Positions 1 to 58,880 of a DNA stretch of 64,000 nucleotides are shown piece by piece. Numbering within the stretch: the first letter of the stretch is position 1; each line of letters starts with the position of its first letter. The notes under the pieces were generated by a model. That model was given only the letters and a program-made list of their open reading frames with translations, did no database searches and was not told the DNA's origin. Position numbers and translations under genes: made by a program. The stretch comes from an uncultured Gammaproteobacteria bacterium (lineage in GTDB: Bacteria; Patescibacteriota; Microgenomatia; CAYQLK01), in assembly GCA_964404855.1 (NCBI GenBank), contig CAYOLO010000002.1, positions 67,494 through 131,493 of the forward strand. The letters run 5' to 3'.

Positions 1-2394
1 GGTTTGATTCTGGACTAGTGACTCAATAGGGAATTTAAATACTCGCGTAATTGTTTCATGATCGATGTCGGATATTAACTTTTCAAATAATTTGTACGAC
101 TCAGCCTTATATTCGACGAGTGGATCTCTTTGAGCATATGCCCTCATTCCAACACCAGACCTAAGATCATCTAGTGTATCAATATGTTCCATCCACAGAG
201 TGTCAATAACACTTAATGAGACTACAAGTTCGGCTTGATCAACTGATTTTTGGGAATATTTTTTAACTCGTTCACTATTTATGTCACCAATTATTTTTAA
301 CAAAAATTCGACAATTTTATCAGCTAATTTTAGTTTGACTATTTCGTCCAAAATTACCTTTTGAGAATTGGGATCAAAAGAAATAATATTGAAAAAATCT
401 TGACCAAGTTGATGATAATCTGGAATCTCAGCTTGATTGATGTGAGTATCGACAAGAAGGTTTATATGATTTTCTATCTTTTGATTAAAGTCTGATTTGA
501 AATCATTTTCTGAATCAATGTTCCCCTGTTGAGCTTCAAGAATTTCTTTTCGTTTTTTGTAAATAATTTCTCTTTGAACGTTTATTACATCGTCGTATTC
601 AACGACCCGTTTACGATTATCGAAATGATGGCCTTCAACTTTTTTTTGAGCATTTTCGATTGCTCTACTTACCATTGCATTTTCGATTGGAGTATCCTCA
701 GGAAGTTTAAGCGCAGTCATAATTTTTGATATCGATTCTCCACCAAATAAGCGCATAATGTCATCCTCTAATGAAACATAAAAACGGGTTGACCCTGGAT
801 CACCCTGTCTACCTGCTCTTCCTCTTAGCTGATTGTCGATTCGACGTGACTCGTGTCTTTCTGTGCCAATAATATGTAAACCTCCAAGCTTGTCGACATT
901 TTTTTCAAGTTTAATATCTACTCCACGGCCAGCAATATTTGTCGCTAGTGTAACTGCACCCTTCTGACCAGCTAGGGAAATAATTTCAGCTTCTTTGGTA
1001 TGATTTTTGGCGTTAAGTACTTCATGTTTGATACCAGTTTTTTTTAAAACCTCTGATAATAATTCGTTTTTTTCGATTGAAGTGGTTCCAATTAATACTG
1101 GCTGTCCAGTTTTGTGAAGCTCTTTGACTTCGCTAGCTACAGCAAGAAACTTGGCTTTTGCGGTTTTATAAACAATATCAGAATAATCTTTTCGAATATT
1201 TGGCCTGTGCGGAGGAATAACAACTACATCGAGCTTGTAAATTTTGAAAAACTCTTCAGCTTCGGTTTCGGCTGTACCAGTCATGCCGGCTAGCTTGTGA
1301 TACATTCTAAAATAATTTTGAAATGTGATTGTTGCAAGCGTACGACTCTCCTCCTGAATTGTAACATTCTCTTTTGCTTCAATAGCTTGATGCAAACCCT
1401 CGGAGTAGCGCCTACCCTCCATCAATCTACCTGTAAACTCGTCTACGATTACAACTTCATTACCTCTGACCACATAATCTCTATCTTTGACGAACAGAGT
1501 TCTCGCGCTGATTGCTTGTTCAATATGGTGGATTGTTGAAAAATTTGTTTCGTATAGATTATTAACTCCAAGAATTTTTTCAACTTTTTGAATACCTGCT
1601 TCAGAGAGTGAAGCTGATTTGAGTTTTTCATCCACAACAAAGTCTACTTCGACGTTAAGACTATTTACCATTTTGGCGAACGTGTAATATTTGTCAGTTG
1701 CCTCTCCAGATGGGGCCGAAATGATTAGAGGCGTTCTTGCTTCATCGATAAGAATTGAGTCGACCTCGTCTACAATTGCGAAATTATGACCCCTTTGAAC
1801 CATATTTTTGAGGTCCCAAACCATATTGTCTCTTAGGTAGTCAAAACCAAATTCATTATTGGTTCCGTAAGTAATATCTGATTTATACATCTCTCTTCTA
1901 ATACTGGTTCCTGGTGGAATTTCGTGGACAATATACCCAACACTTAATCCCAGAGTTTCATATATTGGCTTCATCCACTCCGAGTCTCTTTTTGCTAAGT
2001 AATCATTAACTGTTACAACGTGAACTCCTTTTTCCTCCAAAGCATTTAAATATGCAGGCAATGTTGCGGAAAGTGTTTTACCTTCTCCGGTTTTTTGTTC
2101 AGAAATTTTTCCTTCATGGAGTACAATTCCAGATAATAACTGTACATCGTAGTGACGCATTCTAACTGCTCTTTCAGAAGCTTCTCGAACAGCCGCAAAG
2201 GCTTCGGGTAAAATTTCATTTAAACTTAAGCCGTTTTTCAGCTTTTTCTTAAACTCAACTGTTTTTGATTTTAATTTGGAATCAGAGTATTTTTTGTAAG
2301 TTTTTTCCAAATCGTTAATTTGGGAAATCAATGGCCTAATTTTTTTAAGCTCTTTTTCGTTTGAATTAAGTAGACCGCCTAGTTTTCCTAACAT
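1..2394 (-). CDS. secA: Preprotein translocase ATPase SecA (partial; C-terminus runs off window start)
   Basis: Not in ORF track because it has no in-window stop. Minus-strand translation from ATG at 2392-2394 gives MLGKLGGLLNSNEKELKKIRPLISQINDLEK...HYDVQLLSGIVLHEGKISEQKTGEGKTLSATLPAYLNA. Further in, HIIGTERHESRRIDNQLRGRAGRQGDPGSTRFY, a classic SecA motif. Confidence 0.85.
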   Translation of the reverse strand, partial: MLGKLGGLLNSNEKELKKIRPLISQINDLEKTYKKYSDSKLKSKTVEFKKKLKNGLSLNEILPEAFAAVREASERAVRMRHYDVQLLSGIVLHEGKISEQKTGEGKTLSATLPAYLNALEEKGVHVVTVNDYLAKRDSEWMKPIYETLGLSVGYIVHEIPPGTSIRREMYKSDITYGTNNEFGFDYLRDNMVWDLKNMVQRGHNFAIVDEVDSILIDEARTPLIISAPSGEATDKYYTFAKMVNSLNVEVDFVVDEKLKSASLSEAGIQKVEKILGVNNLYETNFSTIHHIEQAISARTLFVKDRDYVVRGNEVVIVDEFTGRLMEGRRYSEGLHQAIEAKENVTIQEESRTLATITFQNYFRMYHKLAGMTGTAETEAEEFFKIYKLDVVVIPPHRPNIRKDYSDIVYKTAKAKFLAVASEVKELHKTGQPVLIGTTSIEKNELLSEVLKKTGIKHEVLNAKNHTKEAEIISLAGQKGAVTLATNIAGRGVDIKLEKNVDKLGGLHIIGTERHESRRIDNQLRGRAGRQGDPGSTRFYVSLEDDIMRLFGGESISKIMTALKLPEDTPIENAMVSRAIENAQKKVEGHHFDNRKRVVEYDDVINVQREIIYKKRKEILEAQQGNIDSENDFKSDFNQKIENHINLLVDTHINQAEIPDYHQLGQDFFNIISFDPNSQKVILDEIVKLKLADKIVEFLLKIIGDINSERVKKYSQKSVDQAELVVSLSVIDTLWMEHIDTLDDLRSGVGMRAYAQRDPLVEYKAESYKLFEKLISDIDHETITRVFKFPIESLVQNQT

Positions 2395-2466
2395 AATGTC
2401 GTGATTTACTACGAGTGAATATTATAAATTACTAATGTAGAAAATAACAGTCGAGTCTTGCGAGTG

Positions 2467-3696
2467 CTACTCAATTGTTTTAAATCCTGTATATTTGTGC
2501 AGAACATCTGGAATTATTATTGAGCCAGATTCGGTTTGAAAATTTTCCAAAATTGCCGCAATAATTCTTCCGAAGGCGAAGGCTGTTCCGTTGACTGTAT
2601 GGACTAGTTCTTTCTCATTATTGTCGTTAATATATTTAATATTTAGCCGTCTGGATTGAAAATCAGTCGTATTGGATGTCGAATGAGTCTCTCTATATTT
2701 TGATTGTGACGGGAACCAAACCTCAATGTCATATTTTTTGGCGGCAGGGAGACCTAGATCACCTGAAGCAATATTAAGTATTTGATATGGCAGCTTAAGA
2801 CCTTCGACCAATGATTTTTCTAGCTCCAAAATTAAATTATGTTCAGCTTGCGACTGTTTGGGGGTACAAAAAACAAACATTTCTAATTTATTAAATTGAT
2901 GGACACGAATTATGCCTTTTGTGTCTTTACCATAGCTCCCCGACTCGCGACGAAATGAAGGTGAATAACCCATATACCTTAAAGGTAGCTGGTTTACTGT
3001 AAGTATTTCATCCCTATGCATTGGACCAATTGATTGTTCAGCTGTACCTACCAAATACAAATCATCTCTTTCTAGATAATAAGTTTCTTCATTACCACCA
3101 TGTTCTAGATATCCCATTCCTTTCATTGAAGAGGAACTAATTAACACTGGAGGTAAAACAAATACAAAATTTTTCTCCGAAATAAGCTCCCTTGCATAAT
3201 TAAGTAACGCTAGTTCCAACTCTGCACCTTTACCTATTAGATAATAAAATCTTGAACCGCTGACTTTGGCCGCTGATTCAATATCGATAATGTCGAGTGA
3301 TCTACCTAACTCTTCGTGACTTTTGGGAGTAAAATTAAATTTATAGGGTTCGAAATTTTTTCCAACTACCAAACTCTTATCTTCACCACCAATTGGCACT
3401 TCATCAAAAGCTGGATTTGGTATTTTTGAAATTAAATCTTGAAATTTATTTTCTACAACCTTTAATGTTTCTTCAAGTTTTTTTAAATCTACCTTTATTT
3501 TTTTACCTTCCTCTGATGGTTTTTTTGACTTGGAGATAATTTTTCTCTTTTGATTAAATTCTTCTATTGATTTGATAAGTGCATTTCTTTCCTGTTCAAG
3601 TTCAATTACATTTTTAACCAAAATATCAACACCCTTTTCAAGAATCTTTTTTTGAAACCAATCTGGATCGGATTTTAATTTTTTGATATCAATCAT
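2467..3696 (-). CDS. serS: Seryl-tRNA synthetase (class II)
   Basis: N-terminal coiled-coil arm; class II core motifs FRRESGSYGKDTKGIIRVHQFNKLEMF and TSNTTDFQSRRLNIKY; 409 aa. Confidence 0.9.
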   Translation of the reverse strand: MIDIKKLKSDPDWFQKKILEKGVDILVKNVIELEQERNALIKSIEEFNQKRKIISKSKKPSEEGKKIKVDLKKLEETLKVVENKFQDLISKIPNPAFDEVPIGGEDKSLVVGKNFEPYKFNFTPKSHEELGRSLDIIDIESAAKVSGSRFYYLIGKGAELELALLNYARELISEKNFVFVLPPVLISSSSMKGMGYLEHGGNEETYYLERDDLYLVGTAEQSIGPMHRDEILTVNQLPLRYMGYSPSFRRESGSYGKDTKGIIRVHQFNKLEMFVFCTPKQSQAEHNLILELEKSLVEGLKLPYQILNIASGDLGLPAAKKYDIEVWFPSQSKYRETHSTSNTTDFQSRRLNIKYINDNNEKELVHTVNGTAFAFGRIIAAILENFQTESGSIIIPDVLHKYTGFKTIE

Positions 3697-4295
3697 TTTT
3701 GATCTTTAATTTCCCCAATACCTTTAATTTTACCCGAAGTGATTAATGTTATTGCTTTTTGATGCCAAGGAAAACGAGTGATTTTTAAAATATCATGGGT
3801 TTTTTTCTCTAGCTCATGCTTAGCAGCTGGTACGCCTTGAATTTGGGCGATGGCGTCAATATGATCTGCTGCTTTGGCAAACCTGGCCTCTAAACTTTTT
3901 CTTTCTGAATACTCCTTGTATAAACTAAGAATCTCTTCTTTGTTAACTAAATCCTCAACGAGTATTTCCATTCCTTTATCCTCTATATCGCGAAATTTTC
4001 CTTTTTCTAAATATTTTACAAACGACCCAACATCTCCAACAATTGTTTCTGCTAAATCATGAAACAATGCCATTTTAAGAACTTTGTTTTCGTCAACTCT
4101 AGGTTTTTTGTTTTCCTTATTGTGAAGAATGGCTAGCTCGTAAGCAAGAATTGCTGTCGCAAAGGAGTGAGCAGCGACAGAATCTGCCTCATTTCTTTTG
4201 AACCCTAATGTGACAAATCCTTGTCTGGGTAGTTCCTTCGTCCACTGAATGCGTAAAAAAAATTTGATTAGACTTGTTAAATTATTCGTTTTCAT
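3693..4295 (-). CDS. HD-domain phosphohydrolase (YfbR-like 5'-deoxynucleotidase family)
   Basis: H..FATAIL...FHDLAETIVGD motif of HD superfamily; 200 aa; 4-nt overlap with serS. Confidence 0.65.
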   Translation of the reverse strand: MKTNNLTSLIKFFLRIQWTKELPRQGFVTLGFKRNEADSVAAHSFATAILAYELAILHNKENKKPRVDENKVLKMALFHDLAETIVGDVGSFVKYLEKGKFRDIEDKGMEILVEDLVNKEEILSLYKEYSERKSLEARFAKAADHIDAIAQIQGVPAAKHELEKKTHDILKITRFPWHQKAITLITSGKIKGIGEIKDQK

Positions 4296-6517: not shown

Positions 6518-6592
6518 GCCGCCTTGGTCTAGTTGGTCTAGGACACTCGGTTCTCATCCGAGAGATCAGGGGTTCGAATCCCCTAGGCGGTA
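6518..6592 (+). tRNA. tRNA-Glu (anticodon CTC)
   Basis: Cloverleaf GCCGCCT/AGGCGGT acceptor (G1-U72 wobble), 3-bp D-stem GTC/GAC typical of tRNA-Glu, anticodon stem CTCGG/CCGAG with loop TTCTCAT, T-arm AGGGGTTCGAATCCCCT. No encoded CCA. Confidence 0.85.
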
Positions 6593-31767: not shown

Positions 31768-33516
31768 TTACTCAAGAGTAAAAAAATCTTCCACATCTTG
31801 ACCTGAGTCTATTTTTCGCCTTTGTATTTGACCATCCTTACCCACCACAATTATATAATCTACTCCCAGATCTTTTAAAAACATCTCATCGTGCGTGATT
31901 GTCATAACTGCACCAGAATATCTTTTAAGTGCGTCTTCTAGTGTTTCAATCGTATAGATATCAAGATGGTTAGTTGGTTCGTCTAGCACTAGCAGATCTG
32001 GATTGGAAACAAAGAGCGCGACAAGTTCTATCCGGCGAAGCTCGCCAAAACTAAAATCTCCCACTTTCTTATGTGCAGAATCATCAAGCAGCATTCGCGA
32101 CAATGCTTTGTATGCGTCCTCTACGGATACAACCGCCTTGCGACGAATATAATCAATAATATTTTGATCCATTTTTGGTTTATCAGCAGTTTGAGATAAA
32201 TAACCAATTTTTAGTCCGGGTGGAATATCTACCTTGCCTTTGGTCGGAAGCAAGGAGCCGGTAATTACCTTAAGTAGGGTACTTTTACCGGCACCATTGG
32301 CTCCAACAATACCGATTCGTTCTCCACCATGGACAACCAAATCTACGTTAGTAAATATGTCTGAACCATTATGGGGATACCCAAAAGAAATATCTTTCGC
32401 ATTTAGCAGCACACCTGATTTAATTTGAGGCTCCTTCACCTCGAAGGATGGTTTTTTAGGAAGTACTGGCTCGGGTATATCAGATAACTCTCTTTCAATT
32501 CGCACCAGTTGTGATTTTGCTCTTTTGGCTAAAGCACCGCCTTTTGATCGGTAGAACGAATCGTTTGAAATGCCTTCAAATCTTTGTGCCTCTTGTTTTA
32601 GTTGTTTTACAGAATCTTCCAATTGTTTACGTTTTTTCATTTGTTCGTCATAAAGCCTCATTTGAGCTTCAAACATCTCCTGTTTTTTTTGTCGATAAAA
32701 GGTGTAATTTCCACCGAATTTGATTAGTTTTTTTGTTGCTTCGTCGATTTCGATTATTTGAGTTACAGTTTCATCCAGAAACTCACGATCGTGAGAGACA
32801 AGTAATAGAGAGGTGTTTGTTTGTTTAACCCAATCTTCTAGAAACTTCACGCTTTGCGGATCAAGGTTGTTTGTTGGCTCGTCTAATAGAATTAGATTAG
32901 GTGATGAAACGAGTATTCCAGCAAGGGAAACCTTGGTCGCTTCCCCACCACTGATTTCTGTCATATCTCTATCAAGATAATCGGGGGTCAGACCTAAACC
33001 TTTTAAAATTATTTCTCTTTTGCGAGCAAAATCCCACGCATCATATTTGGTCATATCCTCGAGCGCTTTGCCATAGTCGTCCATCAGCTGATCATCGGTT
33101 TTGCCAGCAGCCATCCGTGCGGTCAGCTGGTCATAAGTCTCGATTACTTTGGCCACTTGATCGGCACAACTATCCAAATATTGTTTAACACTACCGTCAA
33201 ATGTAACCTGAATATCCTGATTTAAATATCCAACAGAGGCTTGTGATAAAACAATGTCCCCTTTAACATCTAAATGTTCAGGTGGCGGATTACCATCTGC
33301 AACAGTCGATATCAAATCTAAAATAGATGTTTTACCGCTTCCGTTGCGACCAATTAGTGCAAGTCGCTCTGAAGGTCCAATAGTAAAGTTACCATCAACA
33401 ACCAGCTCTTTCGCTCCAATTCCTAAGTTGAGACCGGTCACAACAAGTCTTGCATTTTCTGTTATTTTTTCTTCCATCCTTACCTCCGGATTAACTCTTA
33501 ATTTTTCATTTCCCAT
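31768..33516 (-). CDS. ABC-F family ATPase (two ABC cassettes with ~80-aa charged linker, no TM domain)
   Basis: Walker A GRNGSGKTS and GANGAGKST; signatures LSGGE-like (ISGGEATKV, FSFGELRRI); start codon 1 nt after sagB-like stop. Confidence 0.85.
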   Translation of the reverse strand: MGNEKLRVNPEVRMEEKITENARLVVTGLNLGIGAKELVVDGNFTIGPSERLALIGRNGSGKTSILDLISTVADGNPPPEHLDVKGDIVLSQASVGYLNQDIQVTFDGSVKQYLDSCADQVAKVIETYDQLTARMAAGKTDDQLMDDYGKALEDMTKYDAWDFARKREIILKGLGLTPDYLDRDMTEISGGEATKVSLAGILVSSPNLILLDEPTNNLDPQSVKFLEDWVKQTNTSLLLVSHDREFLDETVTQIIEIDEATKKLIKFGGNYTFYRQKKQEMFEAQMRLYDEQMKKRKQLEDSVKQLKQEAQRFEGISNDSFYRSKGGALAKRAKSQLVRIERELSDIPEPVLPKKPSFEVKEPQIKSGVLLNAKDISFGYPHNGSDIFTNVDLVVHGGERIGIVGANGAGKSTLLKVITGSLLPTKGKVDIPPGLKIGYLSQTADKPKMDQNIIDYIRRKAVVSVEDAYKALSRMLLDDSAHKKVGDFSFGELRRIELVALFVSNPDLLVLDEPTNHLDIYTIETLEDALKRYSGAVMTITHDEMFLKDLGVDYIIVVGKDGQIQRRKIDSGQDVEDFFTLE

Positions 33517-33517
33517 A

Positions 33518-34231
33518 TTAACCTATAGCAATTGAATATATAGCTTTTTCGTTTGTTCTGTCAATTCGAAGCAGTTTGTTGAGCTTGTCTTCATAAAAAC
33601 CGCCAATTGGACAAGTTCGAACTTTATATTTTTCCGCGATTAATAATATATTTTGAGCCAAATGGCCCGCTTCTATAAAAATATATCTTAATGATTTGTC
33701 TCCGTATTTAATTGCACTTCTTCCTGGAACAGCGGTGATAACCAAAAAAACTGAAGAGTTTGCGACCCAGCTATCTACGAGCGACTGTTTTAAATCTGAT
33801 TTAAAATCTTTTAGTTGGAGTATTTCTAGCGTGTTGTTTTCAATCGAGTAATGATACAAGCCTTTTTTTAAACCTTTAACATTGTTTATAAAAATATAAA
33901 TTTCTAATGGATACCTTGCACCACCAGATGGATACGCACGATAGCTGCGACCGTCGACAGTTGCAGCAAAATTTGCAAAATAAATAATTTTTTTAAGCCT
34001 AATAGCTGATATGAGACGATTGATATTCCTTTGGCTTCTTCTACTGGCAATAACTTTTTCTAGTTCTGATGAGGGCTTGAGTGCTGGGAGTTTAAGATTG
34101 GGAAACCTTGGATAGTTTTTGTAATGAATTGTTTTCCAGGCAATCGGCCACTTATCGTACGGAATTGGTTCTGGAGCAGTGTCCGACTGTGTTCCAGTTT
34201 CGATAAAAAATTTGTTTATATAATCTTTCAT
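33518..34231 (-). CDS. SagB-type FMN-dependent dehydrogenase (TOMM/LAP azoline oxidase, nitroreductase superfamily)
   Basis: RAYPSGGARYPLEIY signature; 237 aa; 4-nt overlap with YcaO gene. Confidence 0.8.
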   Translation of the reverse strand: MKDYINKFFIETGTQSDTAPEPIPYDKWPIAWKTIHYKNYPRFPNLKLPALKPSSELEKVIASRRSQRNINRLISAIRLKKIIYFANFAATVDGRSYRAYPSGGARYPLEIYIFINNVKGLKKGLYHYSIENNTLEILQLKDFKSDLKQSLVDSWVANSSVFLVITAVPGRSAIKYGDKSLRYIFIEAGHLAQNILLIAEKYKVRTCPIGGFYEDKLNKLLRIDRTNEKAIYSIAIG

Positions 34232-35520
34232 AGGAATGGTTGTAGAAATGGATCTAGGTTTTTGATTTGTCGTTTGGCGATTTTTTCAATGCGGCTGACT
34301 TCAAGATATTTATATTCCTCTTCTAAATATAATGGCTGGGCCTGGGGAATAATGATTTTACAAGCAAAAAATCCTAATTTTTTAATTTCTGGGTCATCAA
34401 ATTCTTTTAAATAAACATCAAACCCGATTTTTTTAAGCTGAGAAGTTAGTTTCTTTAATGTGGTTTTTGGATAACTTGACTTAAGCGAAAGTCTGATTGT
34501 TTTTTTATTTTTTAACCAAAAATTAATGTGTTTAAGAACGAACGGTTGACTCCAAATTAGTCCTCGGTCTTTCAGCTCGTATGTCTGATTAATGTTTTTT
34601 AGCAATGATTGGATATATTTTTCATCAGATTTTGCTAGCTCGTCACGCATCCAACCCCGAGTATGAAATGATTCCTCAAGACTGCCTTGAACAGCACGAT
34701 TTAAATCTGTGTGGCATTTCAGACCAAAAGTGACAACAGGTTTATTTTTTGTCTGATCAAGGAGAATTGTCAAAATTACTGGAATATCATAGTCATTGTC
34801 TAATTTAATTATTATTGGTTTGAGATTGTAAAAATTGAATTCATCCAAAATATCAGCAATAATACCCGATGGATTTGTTAGCTTAAGAATTGTACCTGGC
34901 AATTTAGCAAGATAAGAGGATATAAATGTGTCTCTTTCTAAGACTTCAAATATTGCTCGAATAATCGTTGAGTTTCTATCAAGACCTGCGGATGCGCCGG
35001 TTGATATTGGTGTGCGGATAATTTTTTCTTTTTTTCCAAATGGACAATATACTGTTTGAGCAGGAATATATATCGTTTTGTTTGTAGTCAAATCTGTCGC
35101 TTTGGTCCAGTAAAGCGAATCTTGAGGCTGTGCAATCTTTTTTCGAAAGATTGGGTTGGATAATTGTTCAGGTGAGAATTTTAGAAATTTTATTAACTCG
35201 ATTGAGGGGGATAGATTTTTTTGGGAAGCAAATATTAAATCTTTTAAATCTTTTTTTGATGGAATCAAAGCATATCTTTCTACCATTTCGATGTAACCTT
35301 TTATAAAAGCAAGTCTCTCATCCCACGCAGATCCGCTTGCATTGGTACTGAATTTTTTTGACGAGTTTTTACTGTTCAATATGAACGTATACAATTTAGG
35401 TTCATCGTTATAAAAATAACTTCGATGTACCGTCGATATAAAATTTGTTTTTTTGTGGGCAGACACACATTTCTGATATAGCAATTCTAGATTGCTTTCT
35501 ATCGATTTTTTGTTTGACAT
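34228..35520 (-). CDS. YcaO-domain cyclodehydratase (SagD/D-protein-like), standalone (no fused E1-like domain)
   Basis: N-terminal ATP-site motif NASGSAWDERLAFIKGYIEMVERYA and central STGASAGLDRNSTIIRAIFEVLERD (S.G.A.G...A..E..ERD). Confidence 0.85.
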   Translation of the reverse strand: MSNKKSIESNLELLYQKCVSAHKKTNFISTVHRSYFYNDEPKLYTFILNSKNSSKKFSTNASGSAWDERLAFIKGYIEMVERYALIPSKKDLKDLIFASQKNLSPSIELIKFLKFSPEQLSNPIFRKKIAQPQDSLYWTKATDLTTNKTIYIPAQTVYCPFGKKEKIIRTPISTGASAGLDRNSTIIRAIFEVLERDTFISSYLAKLPGTILKLTNPSGIIADILDEFNFYNLKPIIIKLDNDYDIPVILTILLDQTKNKPVVTFGLKCHTDLNRAVQGSLEESFHTRGWMRDELAKSDEKYIQSLLKNINQTYELKDRGLIWSQPFVLKHINFWLKNKKTIRLSLKSSYPKTTLKKLTSQLKKIGFDVYLKEFDDPEIKKLGFFACKIIIPQAQPLYLEEEYKYLEVSRIEKIAKRQIKNLDPFLQPFL

Positions 35521-41411: not shown

Positions 41412-41424
41412 AAATCTATTTTAG

Positions 41425-41460
41425 CAAGAAAAAGCCCCCGTCCATTTCCGTGGACGGGGG
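41425..41460 (-). terminator. Intrinsic terminator (10-bp GC stem) downstream of the GC-rich membrane-protein ORF
   Basis: CCCCCGTCCA(6 nt)TGGACGGGGG at 41435-41460; minus-strand RNA continues with UUUUUCUU. Confidence 0.6.
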
Positions 41461-41533
41461 CAAAAAGCGGAAGGCGGGAGCTTGTTTAGCTCCCAACCTA
41501 CTTGATCTTGAGCTTTTGGCAGTACTTGACTGC

Positions 41534-41968
41534 CTAGGCTCTGAGGAAGGTGGGGATGAGGCCGAGGCGGCCGGCGAGCTTGCTGAGGCCGACATACACG
41601 GCGGTGATGATGAGCATCGGGAACACCATGATGGCGGAGAACACGATGAAGATGATGGGTTCGTACCACTGCATCGGAGGCGAGCTGTTGACCGAGTCGT
41701 AGCCGACGACGTAGCCGCCCATGATCAACATGCTTCCGAAGAAGCAGAGGATGACTTGGGTCAGGACGGGTCGGCGCGATTCGGACGCGAACGCGACTGC
41801 CATGATTGGGACGAGGACGTACCCGAGCCAAAGCGAGGCGATACCCGCGGCCGTGTTGTTGTCCGGCGCCTGCCCGGCGATCGTGCCTGCCCAGAACGCG
41901 AAGAACGCGGTCATGGCGAGGTAGAAGAGCTTGAGCTGACGCGACGGATGACTGAGGGTTTCGAGCAA
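41534..41968 (-). CDS. Small 4-TM membrane protein encoded in a ~600-bp high-GC insert
   Basis: Hydrophobic segments (FYLAMTAFFAFWAGTIAG, LWLGYVLVPIMAVAFA, ILCFFGSMLIMGGYVVG, IIFIVFSAIMVFPMLIITAVYVG); the other long overlapping frames here are compositional artefacts. Confidence 0.45.
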   Translation of the reverse strand: MLETLSHPSRQLKLFYLAMTAFFAFWAGTIAGQAPDNNTAAGIASLWLGYVLVPIMAVAFASESRRPVLTQVILCFFGSMLIMGGYVVGYDSVNSSPPMQWYEPIIFIVFSAIMVFPMLIITAVYVGLSKLAGRLGLIPTFLRA

Positions 41969-42020
41969 GTCTGTGGACCTTCCTTTTTTAATGATCTAAC
42001 CCCCATTATACAATACTATA

Positions 42021-42048
42021 GGACATAAGTCAAATTTGACTTATGTCC
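42021..42048. promoter_or_regulatory. 28-bp perfect palindrome GGACATAAGTCAAATTTGACTTATGTCC at the edge of the high-GC insert
   Basis: Seen directly; about 55 nt upstream of the minus-strand membrane ORF start. Confidence 0.4.
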
Positions 42049-42206
42049 TCACGACGCGGTTTGGTATCGCATTTTTGCAATTTTAATGCTCTCTCAACCG
42101 CTCTGTGCAGGCCTTTTGTCAAGTCATTCTAGCCTCAAGTGGCTTTGATTTAAAAGAATATTGGTTTCGGGTATAATTGCCGAGCCTGAGTTACAGCTCG
42201 GTATTT

Positions 42207-42232
42207 TGCGGGATCGTCTAATGGTAAGAACC
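42207..42232 (+). pseudogene. tRNA-Gln 5'-half pseudo-copy 1
   Basis: TGCGGGATCGTCTAATGGTAAGAACC matches first 20 nt of the intact tRNA-Gln, then diverges; no 3' acceptor strand. Confidence 0.55.
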
Positions 42233-42274
42233 AAATACAATTTGAACCTTGCCATCATCCGACCCACATTAAAA

Positions 42275-42300
42275 TGCGGGATCGTCTAATGGTAAGAACC
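42275..42300 (+). pseudogene. tRNA-Gln 5'-half pseudo-copy 2
   Basis: Identical 26-mer to copy 1, followed by unrelated sequence. Confidence 0.55.
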
Positions 42301-42347
42301 TGACTAAAGTCAGAACCTTCCCACTAGACAGATTTTATTTAAATTTT

Positions 42348-42418
42348 TGCGGGATCGTCTAATGGTAGGACACGCCCCTCTGGAGGGTGGTATTGGGGTT
42401 CGAATCCCTGTCCCGCAG
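42348..42418 (+). tRNA. tRNA-Gln (anticodon CTG)
   Basis: U1-A72 acceptor TGCGGGA/TCCCGCA, anticodon stem CGCCC/GGGTG with loop CTCTGGA, T-arm GGGGTTCGAATCCCTG, discriminator G; no encoded CCA. Confidence 0.8.
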
Positions 42419-42567
42419 CAATTATCTGCTTGACGCAACAAGCGTCTGGGTAGAGAATTATCACGACAGGATAAGAACCGTCAGGTTCGCTCTTTTTGAG
42501 TTGAACTATTGAAAAAACTATTTCAATAGTTAGTTTCAAAAATCTATGATTTGAACAAAATCATACG

Positions 42568-42583
42568 TCCCTGTCCCGCAGCA
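42568..42583 (+). repeat. 16-nt direct repeat of the tRNA-Gln 3' end (TCCCTGTCCCGCAGCA), 147 bp downstream of the tRNA
   Basis: Exact match to 42405-42420; intervening 147 bp contains hairpins CTATTGAAA/TTTCAATAG and ATGATTT/AAATCAT. Confidence 0.6.
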
Positions 42584-42616
42584 AGATAAACAATTTGATT
42601 TGAGTATAATAAATAT

Positions 42617-42985
42617 ATGTTAAATTTTAATTCAGTAATGATTGGGTCGGAACAACCTAAAGAAATGGGTGAGTTTTATAAAAAAGTTTTTGATAAGGCT
42701 CCAGACATGGAAGAAACTGGTTGGTACGGATGGCAAATTGGAAATGCTTTTTTCTCAATAGGCGAACACTCCGAGGTCAAAGGCAAAGTACATGAACCTC
42801 AAAGAGTTATTTTTAATTTCGAAACAAAAGAAGTTAAAGAAGAATTTGAAAGAATAAAAAATACAGGAGCAATTGTTATTAAAGAGCCATACGAAATGGG
42901 TGGTGCTTGGATTGCAACTTTTGCCGATCCTGATGGTAACTATTTCCAGCTTATGACCCCTTGGAATAATGTTAGTAACCGATAG
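42617..42985 (+). CDS. VOC-family (glyoxalase/bleomycin-resistance fold) protein
   Basis: 122 aa; WIATFADPDGNYFQLM C-terminal motif. Confidence 0.7.
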   Translation: MLNFNSVMIGSEQPKEMGEFYKKVFDKAPDMEETGWYGWQIGNAFFSIGEHSEVKGKVHEPQRVIFNFETKEVKEEFERIKNTGAIVIKEPYEMGGAWIATFADPDGNYFQLMTPWNNVSNR

Positions 42986-44535: not shown

Positions 44536-45027
44536 ATGATTTTACGAATAATTTACACACTTTTTATCGGCGTATTTTTAGCAGTATTTGTAGGAGTAGG
44601 AGTTTCTGCTTTTTATTCTGGACCCAAGTATCCCGAAATGCCTGCGATGTTGAAATATTGTTCAATTGAGCTTAAAGATGCTGACCAGTGTGCTGATTAT
44701 AAAAAATCAGCAGAGGAATTCGACATGGCTGAAAAAATATATCGAACTCAATCTCAAGATTACAATCGAAATGTTTCGATGATTGCTGTCATTGCGGCGG
44801 TGATTCTTGTGACTACAAGTTTAACTCTGTTTAAAAAAATATTACTCATTGCTGATGGAATATTGCTTGGAGGAGTACTGACATTGCTTTATGGTACTAT
44901 TCGCGGATTTAGTGCAGAAAATCTAAAGTTTTTGTTCCTGGTCGTCTCGGTTGGGTTAATCGTGTCTCTGGTGCTTGGATATCTTAAATTTATTCGACCT
45001 GTCAAAACAGGTAATAAAAAGAAGTAG
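44536..45027 (+). CDS. Hypothetical membrane protein
   Basis: 163 aa; N-terminal and two central TM segments. Confidence 0.4.
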   Translation: MILRIIYTLFIGVFLAVFVGVGVSAFYSGPKYPEMPAMLKYCSIELKDADQCADYKKSAEEFDMAEKIYRTQSQDYNRNVSMIAVIAAVILVTTSLTLFKKILLIADGILLGGVLTLLYGTIRGFSAENLKFLFLVVSVGLIVSLVLGYLKFIRPVKTGNKKK

Positions 45028-45051: not shown

Positions 45052-45303
45052 ATGTATTACGTTTATATAGTTAAGTGCGCCGACGGAACATACTACACAG
45101 GTAGGACAAATGATTTGGAAAAAAGGTTAAACAATCATAATCACTCCAAAAATGGCGCGCACTACACAAAAATCAGAAGGCCTGTTGAGCTTGTATATAA
45201 AGAGGAGTGTTTAAGTTTGGGTGATTCTTTAAGACGAGAGTTGGGAATAAAAAAATTAAGTCGCAAGCAAAAGAAAGTGTTGATAACAACTAAAAGAATT
45301 TGA
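45052..45303 (+). CDS. GIY-YIG nuclease superfamily protein (UPF0213/YhbQ-like)
   Basis: MYYVYIVKCADGTYYTGRTNDLEKRLNNHN. Confidence 0.85.
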   Translation: MYYVYIVKCADGTYYTGRTNDLEKRLNNHNHSKNGAHYTKIRRPVELVYKEECLSLGDSLRRELGIKKLSRKQKKVLITTKRI

Positions 45304-57515: not shown

Positions 57516-58880
57516 ATGAATTTTAATGATATTCCAAATGACGTGATTTCAATCTTAGATGTTTTTGAAAAAAACAAATTTGAAATTGCGATTGTTGGAG
57601 GAGCGGTGAGAAACTTAATAATCGATCACAAGGTCAAAGACTGGGACTTTGCGACCAATGCCACACCTGAACAAATATTAGAAATGTTTGAAGGATTTTA
57701 TGACAATACGTTTGGCACAGTAAGAGTCAAGACTAATGATAATTTCTATGAAATTACAACTTACCGAAGTGAGTTGGGATTTTCTGACAGCAGACGACCA
57801 GATAAAGTTGTGTGGGGCAAGTCGTTAGCCGATGACTTATCGAGAAGAGATTTTACGGTTAATGCGATGGCAATTCTAAGAAAAAATGACAAGTTTGAAC
57901 TAGTCGATCCGTTTAATGGCAAGGACGATTTGGATCATAAAATAATCCGTTCTGTAGGAAATGCTAACGACAGGTTTATAGAAGACGGACTAAGAGTAAT
58001 TAGGGCAATAAGATTTGCGATTCAGTTAAACTTCAAAATTGAAGAGGAAACTTTTCATGCACTTACCGAACAAAGGTTTATTTTGTTAAAAATCGCAAAC
58101 GAAAGAATTAGAGATGAATTTTTAAAAATAGCATTGAGTTGTGATTCTTATGAACATTTTATGCTTTTGTGGGACTCAAAAGTTATTGAAATAATTCTTC
58201 CCGAACTTGCCAAATGTTTCGGTGTCGAGCAAAAAAGTCCAAACAGACACCATAATTATGATGTATGGAAACATAATGTAATGTCTATGATAATGTGCCC
58301 ATCTAACGACTGTGTTGTTAAATTTGCAGCACTAATTCACGATATTGGTAAACCATTAGTTGCAGATATCACCGAAGAAGGAGTAAGAACTTTTTATAAT
58401 CACGATATTGTTGGGGGGCAAATAGCTAAACAAATTTGTGCTAGATGGAATATGTCAAAAATTGATACCACTAGAATATACAAATTAGTTAGATGGCATT
58501 TATTTTCGGTCAACGAATTCCAAACCGATAAAGCGATTCGTCGATTTATTAGAAATATTGGTGAGGAAAATATTCAAGATATTATTGATGTAAGAACTGG
58601 CGATCGATTAGGTAGTGGCTCAACTAGAGAAAGCTGGCGTCTGAGGAAGTTCCGCGAAAGGCTGGTCGAAGTAAATAAAACAAATTTTGAAATCAAAGAT
58701 CTTAAGATAAATGGTGTTGATGTTATGAAAATTTTTGATATTAAACCTGGACCAAATATCAGAAAAGTACTTGAATCAGTTTTTGAAAAAGTAGACTCAG
58801 ATGAACTAAAAAACGAAAGAGATGTGTTACTTAGTTATCTTAACGAACTAAGATCGTCTAATTTTTTGAAACAAAATTAA
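57516..58880 (+). CDS. cca: CCA-adding tRNA nucleotidyltransferase with HD domain
   Basis: IVGGAVRNLIID...RRDFTVNAMA head domain; HDIGKP HD motif. Confidence 0.85.
   Translation: MNFNDIPNDVISILDVFEKNKFEIAIVGGAVRNLIIDHKVKDWDFATNATPEQILEMFEGFYDNTFGTVRVKTNDNFYEITTYRSELGFSDSRRPDKVVWGKSLADDLSRRDFTVNAMAILRKNDKFELVDPFNGKDDLDHKIIRSVGNANDRFIEDGLRVIRAIRFAIQLNFKIEEETFHALTEQRFILLKIANERIRDEFLKIALSCDSYEHFMLLWDSKVIEIILPELAKCFGVEQKSPNRHHNYDVWKHNVMSMIMCPSNDCVVKFAALIHDIGKPLVADITEEGVRTFYNHDIVGGQIAKQICARWNMSKIDTTRIYKLVRWHLFSVNEFQTDKAIRRFIRNIGEENIQDIIDVRTGDRLGSGSTRESWRLRKFRERLVEVNKTNFEIKDLKINGVDVMKIFDIKPGPNIRKVLESVFEKVDSDELKNERDVLLSYLNELRSSNFLKQN

Follow-up and report, generated by a model that had tools for sequence, protein, structure and literature searches.

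Islands and prophages that are integrated into transfer RNA (tRNA) genes were reportedly described by Reiter in 1989 and by Williams in 2002. A regenerated tRNA gene and a displaced fragment of it mark the ends of genomic islands (PMC4383910), and several examples of tRNA genes that serve as integration sites have been published (PMC9897764). Cis-mobilizable elements (CIMEs) have kept both attachment (att) sites, attL and attR, and lost the genes for integration and transfer (ICEberg 2.0, PMC6323972). The nearest precedent for the GIY-YIG loci described below is SegB of phage T4, a free-standing GIY-YIG homing endonuclease with a gene located among tRNA genes (PMC2330249). Disrupted tRNA genes are also known from archaea, including split and tri-split genes as well as genes with transposing introns (PMC10714607). 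Here, we describe a tRNA-Gln gene with partial copies of itself on both sides, located in a stretch of 64,000 nucleotides (nt) from an uncultured bacterium (contig CAYOLO010000002.1, positions 67,494 to 131,493; hereafter the window). In the original prediction, two copies of the 5' part upstream of the gene and one copy of the 3' end downstream were jointly interpreted as a decayed array of att sites or an integration hot spot. This interpretation holds for the 3' repeat, which has empty and occupied alleles and variable cargo, but not for the 5' copies, which form a conserved structured module.

The window is AT-rich, with a G+C content of about 36%, and the locus is surrounded by genes for housekeeping proteins (identified with Pfam as GluRS, Dus, an Asp/Asn-type tRNA synthetase, RelA/SpoT, RecJ, the CCA-adding enzyme and SecDF). 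Cluster mates of the window proteins at identities of at least 90% are named Candidatus Curtissbacteria bacterium (Patescibacteria). On this Curtissbacteria-like chromosome, the locus is probably a composite, in which an integration at the 3' end and a separate, conserved 5' leader module are arranged around one functional tRNA-Gln(CTG) gene.

The sole intact tRNA-Gln gene, with the anticodon CTG, is located at positions 42348-42419 on the plus strand, as are the other features of the locus given below. It was identified by ARAGORN and by Rfam (tRNA, 51.7 bits); the CCA end is not encoded, and a gene for the CCA-adding enzyme is found at positions 57516-58880 in the window. The gene is preceded by two units, here called U1 (42207-42274) and U2 (42275-42347), and the three 5' units are arranged head to tail with spacings of 68 and 73 nt. 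As predicted, the 26-mer TGCGGGATCGTCTAATGGTAAGAACC occurs at positions 42207 and 42275, of which only the first 20 nt are shared with the beginning of the tRNA gene at position 42348 (0 matches expected, 100 shuffles). U1 and U2 were not called as tRNAs by ARAGORN or by the Rfam model RF00005, even at E ≤ 10 in the Rfam search of positions 41900-42700. No partial copies were found of the tRNA-Glu gene in the window (position 6518).

Downstream, the 17-mer TCCCTGTCCCGCAGCAA is present at positions 42405-42421 and again at 42568-42584, with a start-to-start distance of 163 nt; this is the repeat of the tRNA 3' end that was originally reported as 16 nt, and two matches were obtained in none of 100 shuffled sequences. 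The first, attL-like copy consists of the 3' strand of the T-stem, the 3' strand of the acceptor stem, the discriminator base and CAA, and the second, attR-like copy corresponds to a displaced tRNA 3' end. The copies enclose a miniature insert (42422-42567) with five hairpins and no open reading frame (ORF) of note, and are followed by species-specific cargo (42585-42982) with a gene of the VOC/glyoxalase family (42617-42985). The same architecture was present in independent Logan, ENA and JGI assemblies, and the locus is thus not an assembly artefact.

The two 5' copies were thought to be followed by unrelated sequence each. This proved incorrect, as both continue with a homologous module that consists of AAC, a short hairpin, AAC and CTT(G/C)CCA.. 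in succession. U1 contains tRNA bases 1-22, AAC, the hairpin CAAAT-ACA-ATTTG, AAC and then CTTGCCAT.., which is an inverted copy of a D-arm segment. U2 is built like U1, with the hairpin CTGAC-TAAA-GTCAG, the 3' arm CTTCCCACTAGAC and a T-rich spacer up to the tRNA gene. In single-sequence folds, each unit folds alone into the same shape, with an outer stem, a symmetric AAC/AAC internal loop and a short inner hairpin, and with the outer stem formed by pairing of GTCTAATGGTAAG (tRNA positions 10-22) with CTT(G/C)CCA..TAGAC. The folding energies are -18.9 kcal/mol (z = -3.45) for U1, in which the hairpin proper spans positions 42207-42268, and -17.0 kcal/mol for U2, and the leader as a whole (42178-42347) contains three hairpins (z = -5.5).

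We compared the locus to orthologous loci in sister species, which were obtained both with a DNA pattern and from homologs of the neighbouring NUDIX gene, and in which the NUDIX neighbour is 76-100% identical. One or two U units have been retained upstream of the tRNA gene in each of the sister species that were examined (fetched loci L178, L139, L208, L211, L214, L216, L217, L218 and L219). Two units were identified in the window, L178 and L139, one diverged unit each in L208 and L214, a single U2-type unit in L218 and L219, and a single unit with the U2 hairpin and the U1 tail in L211. The loci L216 and L217 are from two contigs of one species, with identical NUDIX proteins and flanks, and their single unit differs over about 40 nt, the hairpin being of the U1 type in one locus and of the U2 type in the other, a swap which indicates that the U array recombines. 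Synteny of the upstream flank is maintained throughout the sister species, without variable cargo, and only the conserved U module of 35-50 nt, with no variable foreign DNA, is located between the 5' copies and the tRNA gene. The block at positions 42020-42583 is 97% identical between the window and L178, as compared to 83-86% for the flanking genes.

The inner hairpin also shows compensatory changes. Across 17 distinct units, 98.8% of the cells are paired and two-sided changes were observed in five of the six pairs, in counts that lean towards structure since they were taken from hand-made, N-padded alignments (A3 and A4) fitted to the structure. These alignments were used instead of a MAFFT alignment (A2), in which the variable hairpin was out of register and the RNAalifold structure was meaningless. 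Independent of the hand-fitted alignments is a comparison of the orthologous U2 units, in which CTGAC/GTCAG in the window corresponds to TTGGC/GCCAA in L214, that is, two compensatory double changes. The retention in all sister species examined, the syntenic flank and the compensated hairpin do not fit decayed att remnants or footprints of lost elements, for which U1 and U2 were taken. More probably, the two units represent a conserved and structured leader module that is present in tandem and originated from the 5' part of the tRNA itself.

Upstream of U1 is a promoter-like site (TTTAAA-17-TATAAT, 42149-42177), the only one on the plus strand upstream of the tRNA gene, followed by a hairpin at the start of the leader (CCGAGC..GCTCGG, 42178-42203). 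The promoter block TATAATTGCCGAGCCTGAG is conserved upstream of the U unit in L208, L214, L216 and L218, and no plus-strand promoter-like site was found between U and the tRNA gene in the window. From this arrangement, we infer that the U units are part of the leader transcript of pre-tRNA-Gln; judging from the sequence, they are apparently co-transcribed with the tRNA from a single promoter-like site. No Rfam family matched U, neither at E ≤ 10 for positions 41900-42700 nor at gathering thresholds for 20 related loci, in which only tRNAs were identified. A hairpin module made from the first 20 bases of a tRNA is without a described counterpart.

U-like units were also identified 59-130 nt upstream (start to start) of tRNA-Gln genes with the anticodon TTG or CTG on some 20 metagenome contigs, which represent several lineages distinct in sequence, including tandem pairs in L155, L158 and L185, and in one genome bin (L044). 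The tRNA itself varies among these lineages, with either TGGGGG or TGCGGG in the acceptor stem and with the CCA end encoded or not, and the first bases of U agree with those of the local tRNA either completely or with a single mismatch. We built a covariance model of the U unit, R1, and applied it to the window and to 120 genome tRNA-Gln loci that share the 5' 20-mer of the tRNA (8-kb stretches, mostly from Patescibacteria bins). U1 (55.2 bits), U2 (62.1 bits) and the unit in L044 gave scores in the range of 53-62 bits, as compared to at most 25 bits for intact tRNA-Gln genes, and nothing else was found in the window or the 120 loci. A scan of viral contigs for the U junction gave seven matches, all in one unrelated coding context. 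Partial 5' copies were found for 1 of 68 non-Gln tRNA genes in a pooled scan of all fetched loci, including a cluster of ten tRNA genes. In L148 and L175, the U-bearing tRNA-Gln gene is the last gene of a ten-tRNA-gene cluster.

On the 3' side, the comparison of orthologous tRNA-Gln loci revealed both empty and occupied alleles in one sister species. In L178 and L169, the tRNA gene is followed by the 147-bp segment, the repeat and a trailer that starts with TAGTTTGG (occupied), whereas in L139, which is 99.75% identical to L178 over 1610 nt, the tRNA end continues straight into TAGTTTGG (empty). The segment and one repeat (about 164 bp) represent a precise presence/absence polymorphism within this sister species, with the repeat as its boundary. 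The insert is likewise missing from L214. In an empty allele of the window's species, the tRNA end would be joined to GATAAACAATT, as it is to TAGTTTGG in the sister species, and an excised circle would have the junction ..ATCATACG followed by TCCCTGTCCCGCAGCAA and TTATCTGC. A scan of viral contigs for CGTCCCTGTCCCGCAGCAATTAT, an attP-type junction of the mini-insert, gave 0 matches. Two Logan contigs from different runs, L007 and L009, start exactly at position 42568, where the downstream repeat begins; this is a hint of a branch in the assembly graph, as would be expected if these samples also contained an insert-less allele.

The intervening segment was correctly described as rich in hairpins, and when folded as positions 42420-42567 (148 nt) its five hairpins correspond to z = -6.3. 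It contains a terminator-like hairpin (42475-42488) that is followed by a T run. At positions 42465-42503, the insert is a copy, at 95%, of the native tRNA trailer/terminator block of the sister species, and the rest of it is unalignable to that trailer. This is expected if incoming DNA restored the 3' end of the tRNA and supplied a trailer of its own, but not from a simple local duplication. A search for other copies of the 147-bp segment, as suggested with the original prediction, yielded none in the window or in any fetched locus, the terminator block apart. No terminal inverted repeats were found between the sequence that follows the 20-mer in U and the right end of the insert.

Five different continuations were observed immediately after ..CCCGCAGCA, in the window, L178, L208, L211 and L214, respectively. 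The homology between the window and L208 halts at position 42421 and returns at 42983. The cargo past the tRNA gene consists of DUF4287 and AHSA1 genes in L208 and of a gene for a repeat protein of 646 amino acids in L178, and there is almost nothing in L216-L219, where the ortholog of the ORF at positions 44536-45027 follows after about 90 nt. In L211, a prophage-like element (1-3972 in the orientation of the locus) adjoins the orthologous tRNA-Gln gene and encodes a large serine recombinase (Resolvase and Recombinase domains, 411 amino acids), a tRNA_anti-like protein, a helix-turn-helix protein and a protein with a weak terminase-like match. The L211 contig ends about 2.8 kb past the fetched flank, before the far junction of this element, and a methyltransferase-like protein of L211 has only six homologs, none on the L211 contig. 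The 3' side is an ordinary tRNA-gene integration scar at a hot spot, which is known behaviour of tRNA genes.

According to the composite explanation, DNA would have entered at the tRNA 3' end by recombination within the last 16-17 bp, rebuilt the 3' end of the gene and supplied its own trailer and terminator, thereby displacing the original 3' end to where the downstream repeat is now located. The non-coding miniature of 147 bp that remains may be a remnant or an att-flanked passenger, and could be lost precisely through excision or slippage between the repeats. Each copy of the tandem leader module is an imperfect palindrome, in which the first 22 nt of the tRNA gene and an inverted copy of its D-arm segment are arranged around the AAC/AAC loop and a small hairpin. 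The module may have arisen when the 5' part of the gene was duplicated, perhaps through an insertion near position 20 of the type seen at the GIY-YIG loci described below, and may now persist owing to a role of the hairpin in the pre-tRNA leader or in the DNA; a palindrome at the DNA level may be an alternative to an RNA structure for the inner hairpin.

Several observations weigh against this explanation. Pairing in the outer stem amounts to 84%, is disrupted by changes in L208, L216 and L217 and is practically without compensatory changes, so that it may be a relic of the inverted duplication. For the inner hairpin, the shaping of the alignment by hand to the structure weakens the covariation count, and small perfect palindromes can persist by template switching without selection. 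A U unit was found in only 1 of the 120 genome tRNA-Gln loci, which means that tRNA-Gln as a rule does not require the module. In the window's own species, all informative contigs were occupied and the assemblies contained no empty allele, and slippage between the repeats equally well explains the empty allele in the sister species as excision. In agreement with the original prediction, a Pfam scan of 40 ORFs of the window, which make up roughly three quarters of those with at least 120 amino acids, revealed no integrase or recombinase, and the mechanism of the 3' insertion is for this reason only inferred.

The strongest competitor invokes nested invasions by a cassette that targets tRNA-Gln and that in its autonomous form carries a GIY-YIG nuclease gene and a replacement tRNA-Gln or its 5' part. 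U1 and U2 would then be what is left of genes invaded one after the other, namely 5' stumps attached to the structured left end of the cassette, the 17-mer would be the 3' stump, and the nuclease gene would have been lost. An ORF of about 80 codons for a GIY-YIG protein ends at most 25 nt from the tRNA-Gln gene, or runs into it, in 8 of the 120 loci, mostly labelled Patescibacteria (six confirmed by Pfam); four further GIY-YIG ORFs are within about 520 nt of tRNA-Gln, and only four elsewhere in those loci. Upstream of the ORF, a 5' fragment of tRNA-Gln was found in seven loci (L014, L020, L036, L059, L081, L119 and L129), with a break at about position 15-26 (about 20 in L020 and L036, 25 in L081 and 26 in L059) except for L119, where it is located in the anticodon loop. 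Fragments of the 3' end are present downstream of the intact gene in L014, L062, L119, L122 and others. In L014 (region 1850), an outer tRNA-Gln (TGCCAGA...TCTGGCA) is split in the D-loop by a cassette bounded by the inverted repeats CTTGCCCCGCC and GGCGGGGTGAAG that contains the GIY-YIG ORF and an intact inner tRNA-Gln gene; L119 is a second example of a nuclease and tRNA cassette inserted in tRNA-Gln. The same pair of inverted repeats occurs empty in the anticodon loop of the outer copy in L014, and in the D-loop of a pseudo-copy in L052, between TCTAA and TAGGAC.

The arrangement of these loci suggests that nuclease-linked cassettes may disrupt tRNA-Gln and supply a replacement; the searched literature contains no description of such cassettes. 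U1 and U2 match the tRNA through position 20, a break in the D-arm region like those of the stumps at the GIY-YIG loci, which makes an event of the cassette type a plausible origin of the U module, and nested insertion would be expected to yield units arranged head to tail, each beginning with tRNA bases 1-20. For the window itself, we nevertheless consider nested invasions possible at best, at odds clearly inferior to those of the composite explanation. There is no nuclease gene between the 5' fragments and the tRNA gene in the window or within any U-bearing locus, L139 has both U units yet no 3' stump, and the U module and the right end of the insert share no terminal inverted repeat. Moreover, the U module is old and conserved in the clade, and its changes in copy number are explained by unequal recombination in the array, as in L216 versus L217.

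The nearest GIY-YIG ORF in the window (45052-45303, 83 amino acids, Pfam 60.9 bits) is in another context, 2.6 kb from the tRNA-Gln gene and not adjoining any tRNA, and is kept in place in L208 and L218. In L014, L036 and L119, the GIY-YIG ORF has no stop codon before the tRNA-Gln gene and the frame enters the tRNA sequence. An ORF in L062 that by eye resembled LAGLIDADG proteins had no Pfam match and is not claimed here.

A broader version of the cassette hypothesis, which we put forward tentatively and consider doubtful, is that U represents the structured junction module of undescribed selfish cassettes that target tRNA-Gln in Patescibacteria, the autonomous members of which would encode a minimal GIY-YIG nuclease along with a replacement tRNA-Gln or 5' part. 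Equally tentatively, insertion of such cassettes into the D-arm or the anticodon loop of the resident gene would generate nested 5' and 3' stumps. It is similarly speculative that U1 and U2, which lack a nuclease, persist because the hairpin, which combines target sequence with an inverted copy of it, is a substrate for the nuclease or for repair, or has been co-opted as an element of the pre-tRNA leader.

The unitary reading of the original prediction, that all of the 5' and 3' partial copies are decayed att sites of lost, integrase-borne elements, the 5' ones being derived from elements with a replacement 5' part, appears improbable. The 3' repeat does behave like an att site, islands with a displaced 5' fragment exist, albeit rarely (159 of 3919 in Islander, PMC4383910), and 5' fragments broken at positions 18-26 were found at other tRNA-Gln loci. 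However, the upstream flank shows synteny and no variable cargo in any of the sister species, and U is kept even where the NUDIX neighbour is only 76% identical, with compensated changes in the hairpin. Also, the sequence that follows the 20-mer is not random element DNA, but a conserved module common to unrelated lineages.

Least probable among the explanations considered, and in our opinion very unlikely, is a neutral by-product, in which the leader and the first 20 nt were duplicated by strand slippage or unequal crossover and the hairpins were kept perfect by quasipalindrome correction, with no function and no mobile element involved. The tandem head-to-tail layout, the copy number of one or two, the recombinant units in L211 and in L216/L217 and the lack of covariation in the outer stem are consistent with such a process, as are L136, L148, L155 and L185, where the duplicated unit takes in the tRNA leader or the promoter. 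It does not account for the invariant AAC/AAC loop and the same, never-complementary base opposite T19 in lineages with differing tRNAs, nor for the high identity of the block around the units relative to the flanking genes. Finally, U1 and U2 were rejected as odd or armless tRNAs, split-tRNA halves, T-box elements or attenuators, the defining parts of which are missing (e.g., there is no anticodon arm), and as folded sites of the IS200/IS605 or integron attC types, for which there is no transposase or integrase and no dispersed copies.

Segments of 100-150 nt with a high G+C content were observed 3' of tRNA-Gln in L155, L159, L161, L122, L032, L045, L073, L114 and L126. They start with an inverted copy of the T-loop (GGATTCGAA), end with a direct copy of the tRNA 3' end and are mutually related in several loci; in L073, a similar segment also follows the 5' fragment. 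No Rfam family matched these segments.

Upstream of the locus, a patch at positions 41421-41990 has a G+C content of 55-65%. It contains an ORF on the minus strand (41534-41968) for a membrane-protein-like product of 144 amino acids with no Pfam match, which is kept in L178 (154 amino acids) and L211 (172 amino acids), and an antisense ORF of 192 amino acids (41450-42028) has been annotated as a gene in public contigs. A perfect 30-bp palindrome, AGGACATAAGTCAAA/TTTGACTTATGTCCT, at positions 42020-42049 overlaps with a promoter-like site on the minus strand (TTGACT-17-TATAAT, 42033-42005) that faces the GC-rich gene, and could be an operator; it has one change in L178, and a different palindrome is located at the same place in L208. 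Further away, at positions 31768-35520, genes for a YcaO cyclodehydratase, a nitroreductase-family protein and an ABC-ATPase in a row look like a small cluster for azoline-type ribosomally synthesized and post-translationally modified peptides (azoline/RiPP-type), and YcaO is syntenic in L211, L216 and L218.

The 3' part of the locus provides a clean example of a small tRNA-gene integration hot spot in Patescibacteria (candidate phyla radiation), with both alleles in one population, and is of use in defining the accessory DNA of these little-known genomes. Of greater interest is the 5' part, a tRNA-derived, conserved hairpin in the leader of the same tRNA that recurs in several lineages and corresponds neither to att scars nor to any known RNA family. 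If the U module acts on the processing of pre-tRNA-Gln, or marks nuclease-driven cassettes that replace the essential gene disrupted by them, it would represent a new way of targeting and rebuilding a tRNA gene. For annotation, fragments of tRNA-Gln in these genomes are unreliable as island boundaries.

We also compared the locus to the known systems. It resembles the islands of the Islander type in that an exact copy of the 3' end in the same orientation follows the intact tRNA gene (17 nt, 42568-42584, plus strand) and in that a repeat-bounded insert has empty and occupied alleles, in a sister species and not in the window's own, with variable cargo at the junction. It differs from such islands in that the interval is only about 147 bp, non-coding, without an integrase and with a spare tRNA trailer/terminator, and in that the neighbouring element in one sister species (L211) has a serine and not a tyrosine recombinase. 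The 5' copies do not fit the Islander-type model, there being no variable foreign DNA between fragment and gene. Like a CIME, the locus has identical attL- and attR-like repeats of 17 nt around recombinase-less DNA that is present or absent; however, CIMEs are kilobases long and tied to a cognate integrative and conjugative element (ICE), whereas the insert is far smaller and no cognate element or integrase was identified.

The similarity to SegB lies in the small GIY-YIG genes that abut tRNA-Gln at other loci, the association of which with gene fragments suggests a nuclease-driven replacement. SegB functions during phage co-infection, and no nested gene fragments result from its action, whereas the predicted GIY-YIG nucleases identified here, of about 80 amino acids, consist of the catalytic domain only, and the tRNA-Gln unit of the window is without a GIY-YIG gene. 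In contrast to the disrupted tRNA genes of archaea, the locus belongs to a bacterium and has an intact gene beside the pieces, which are unjoinable since they lack an anticodon arm. The features in common with the archaeal genes are the tRNA pieces, parted by inserted sequence, and a leader that is complementary to parts of the tRNA.

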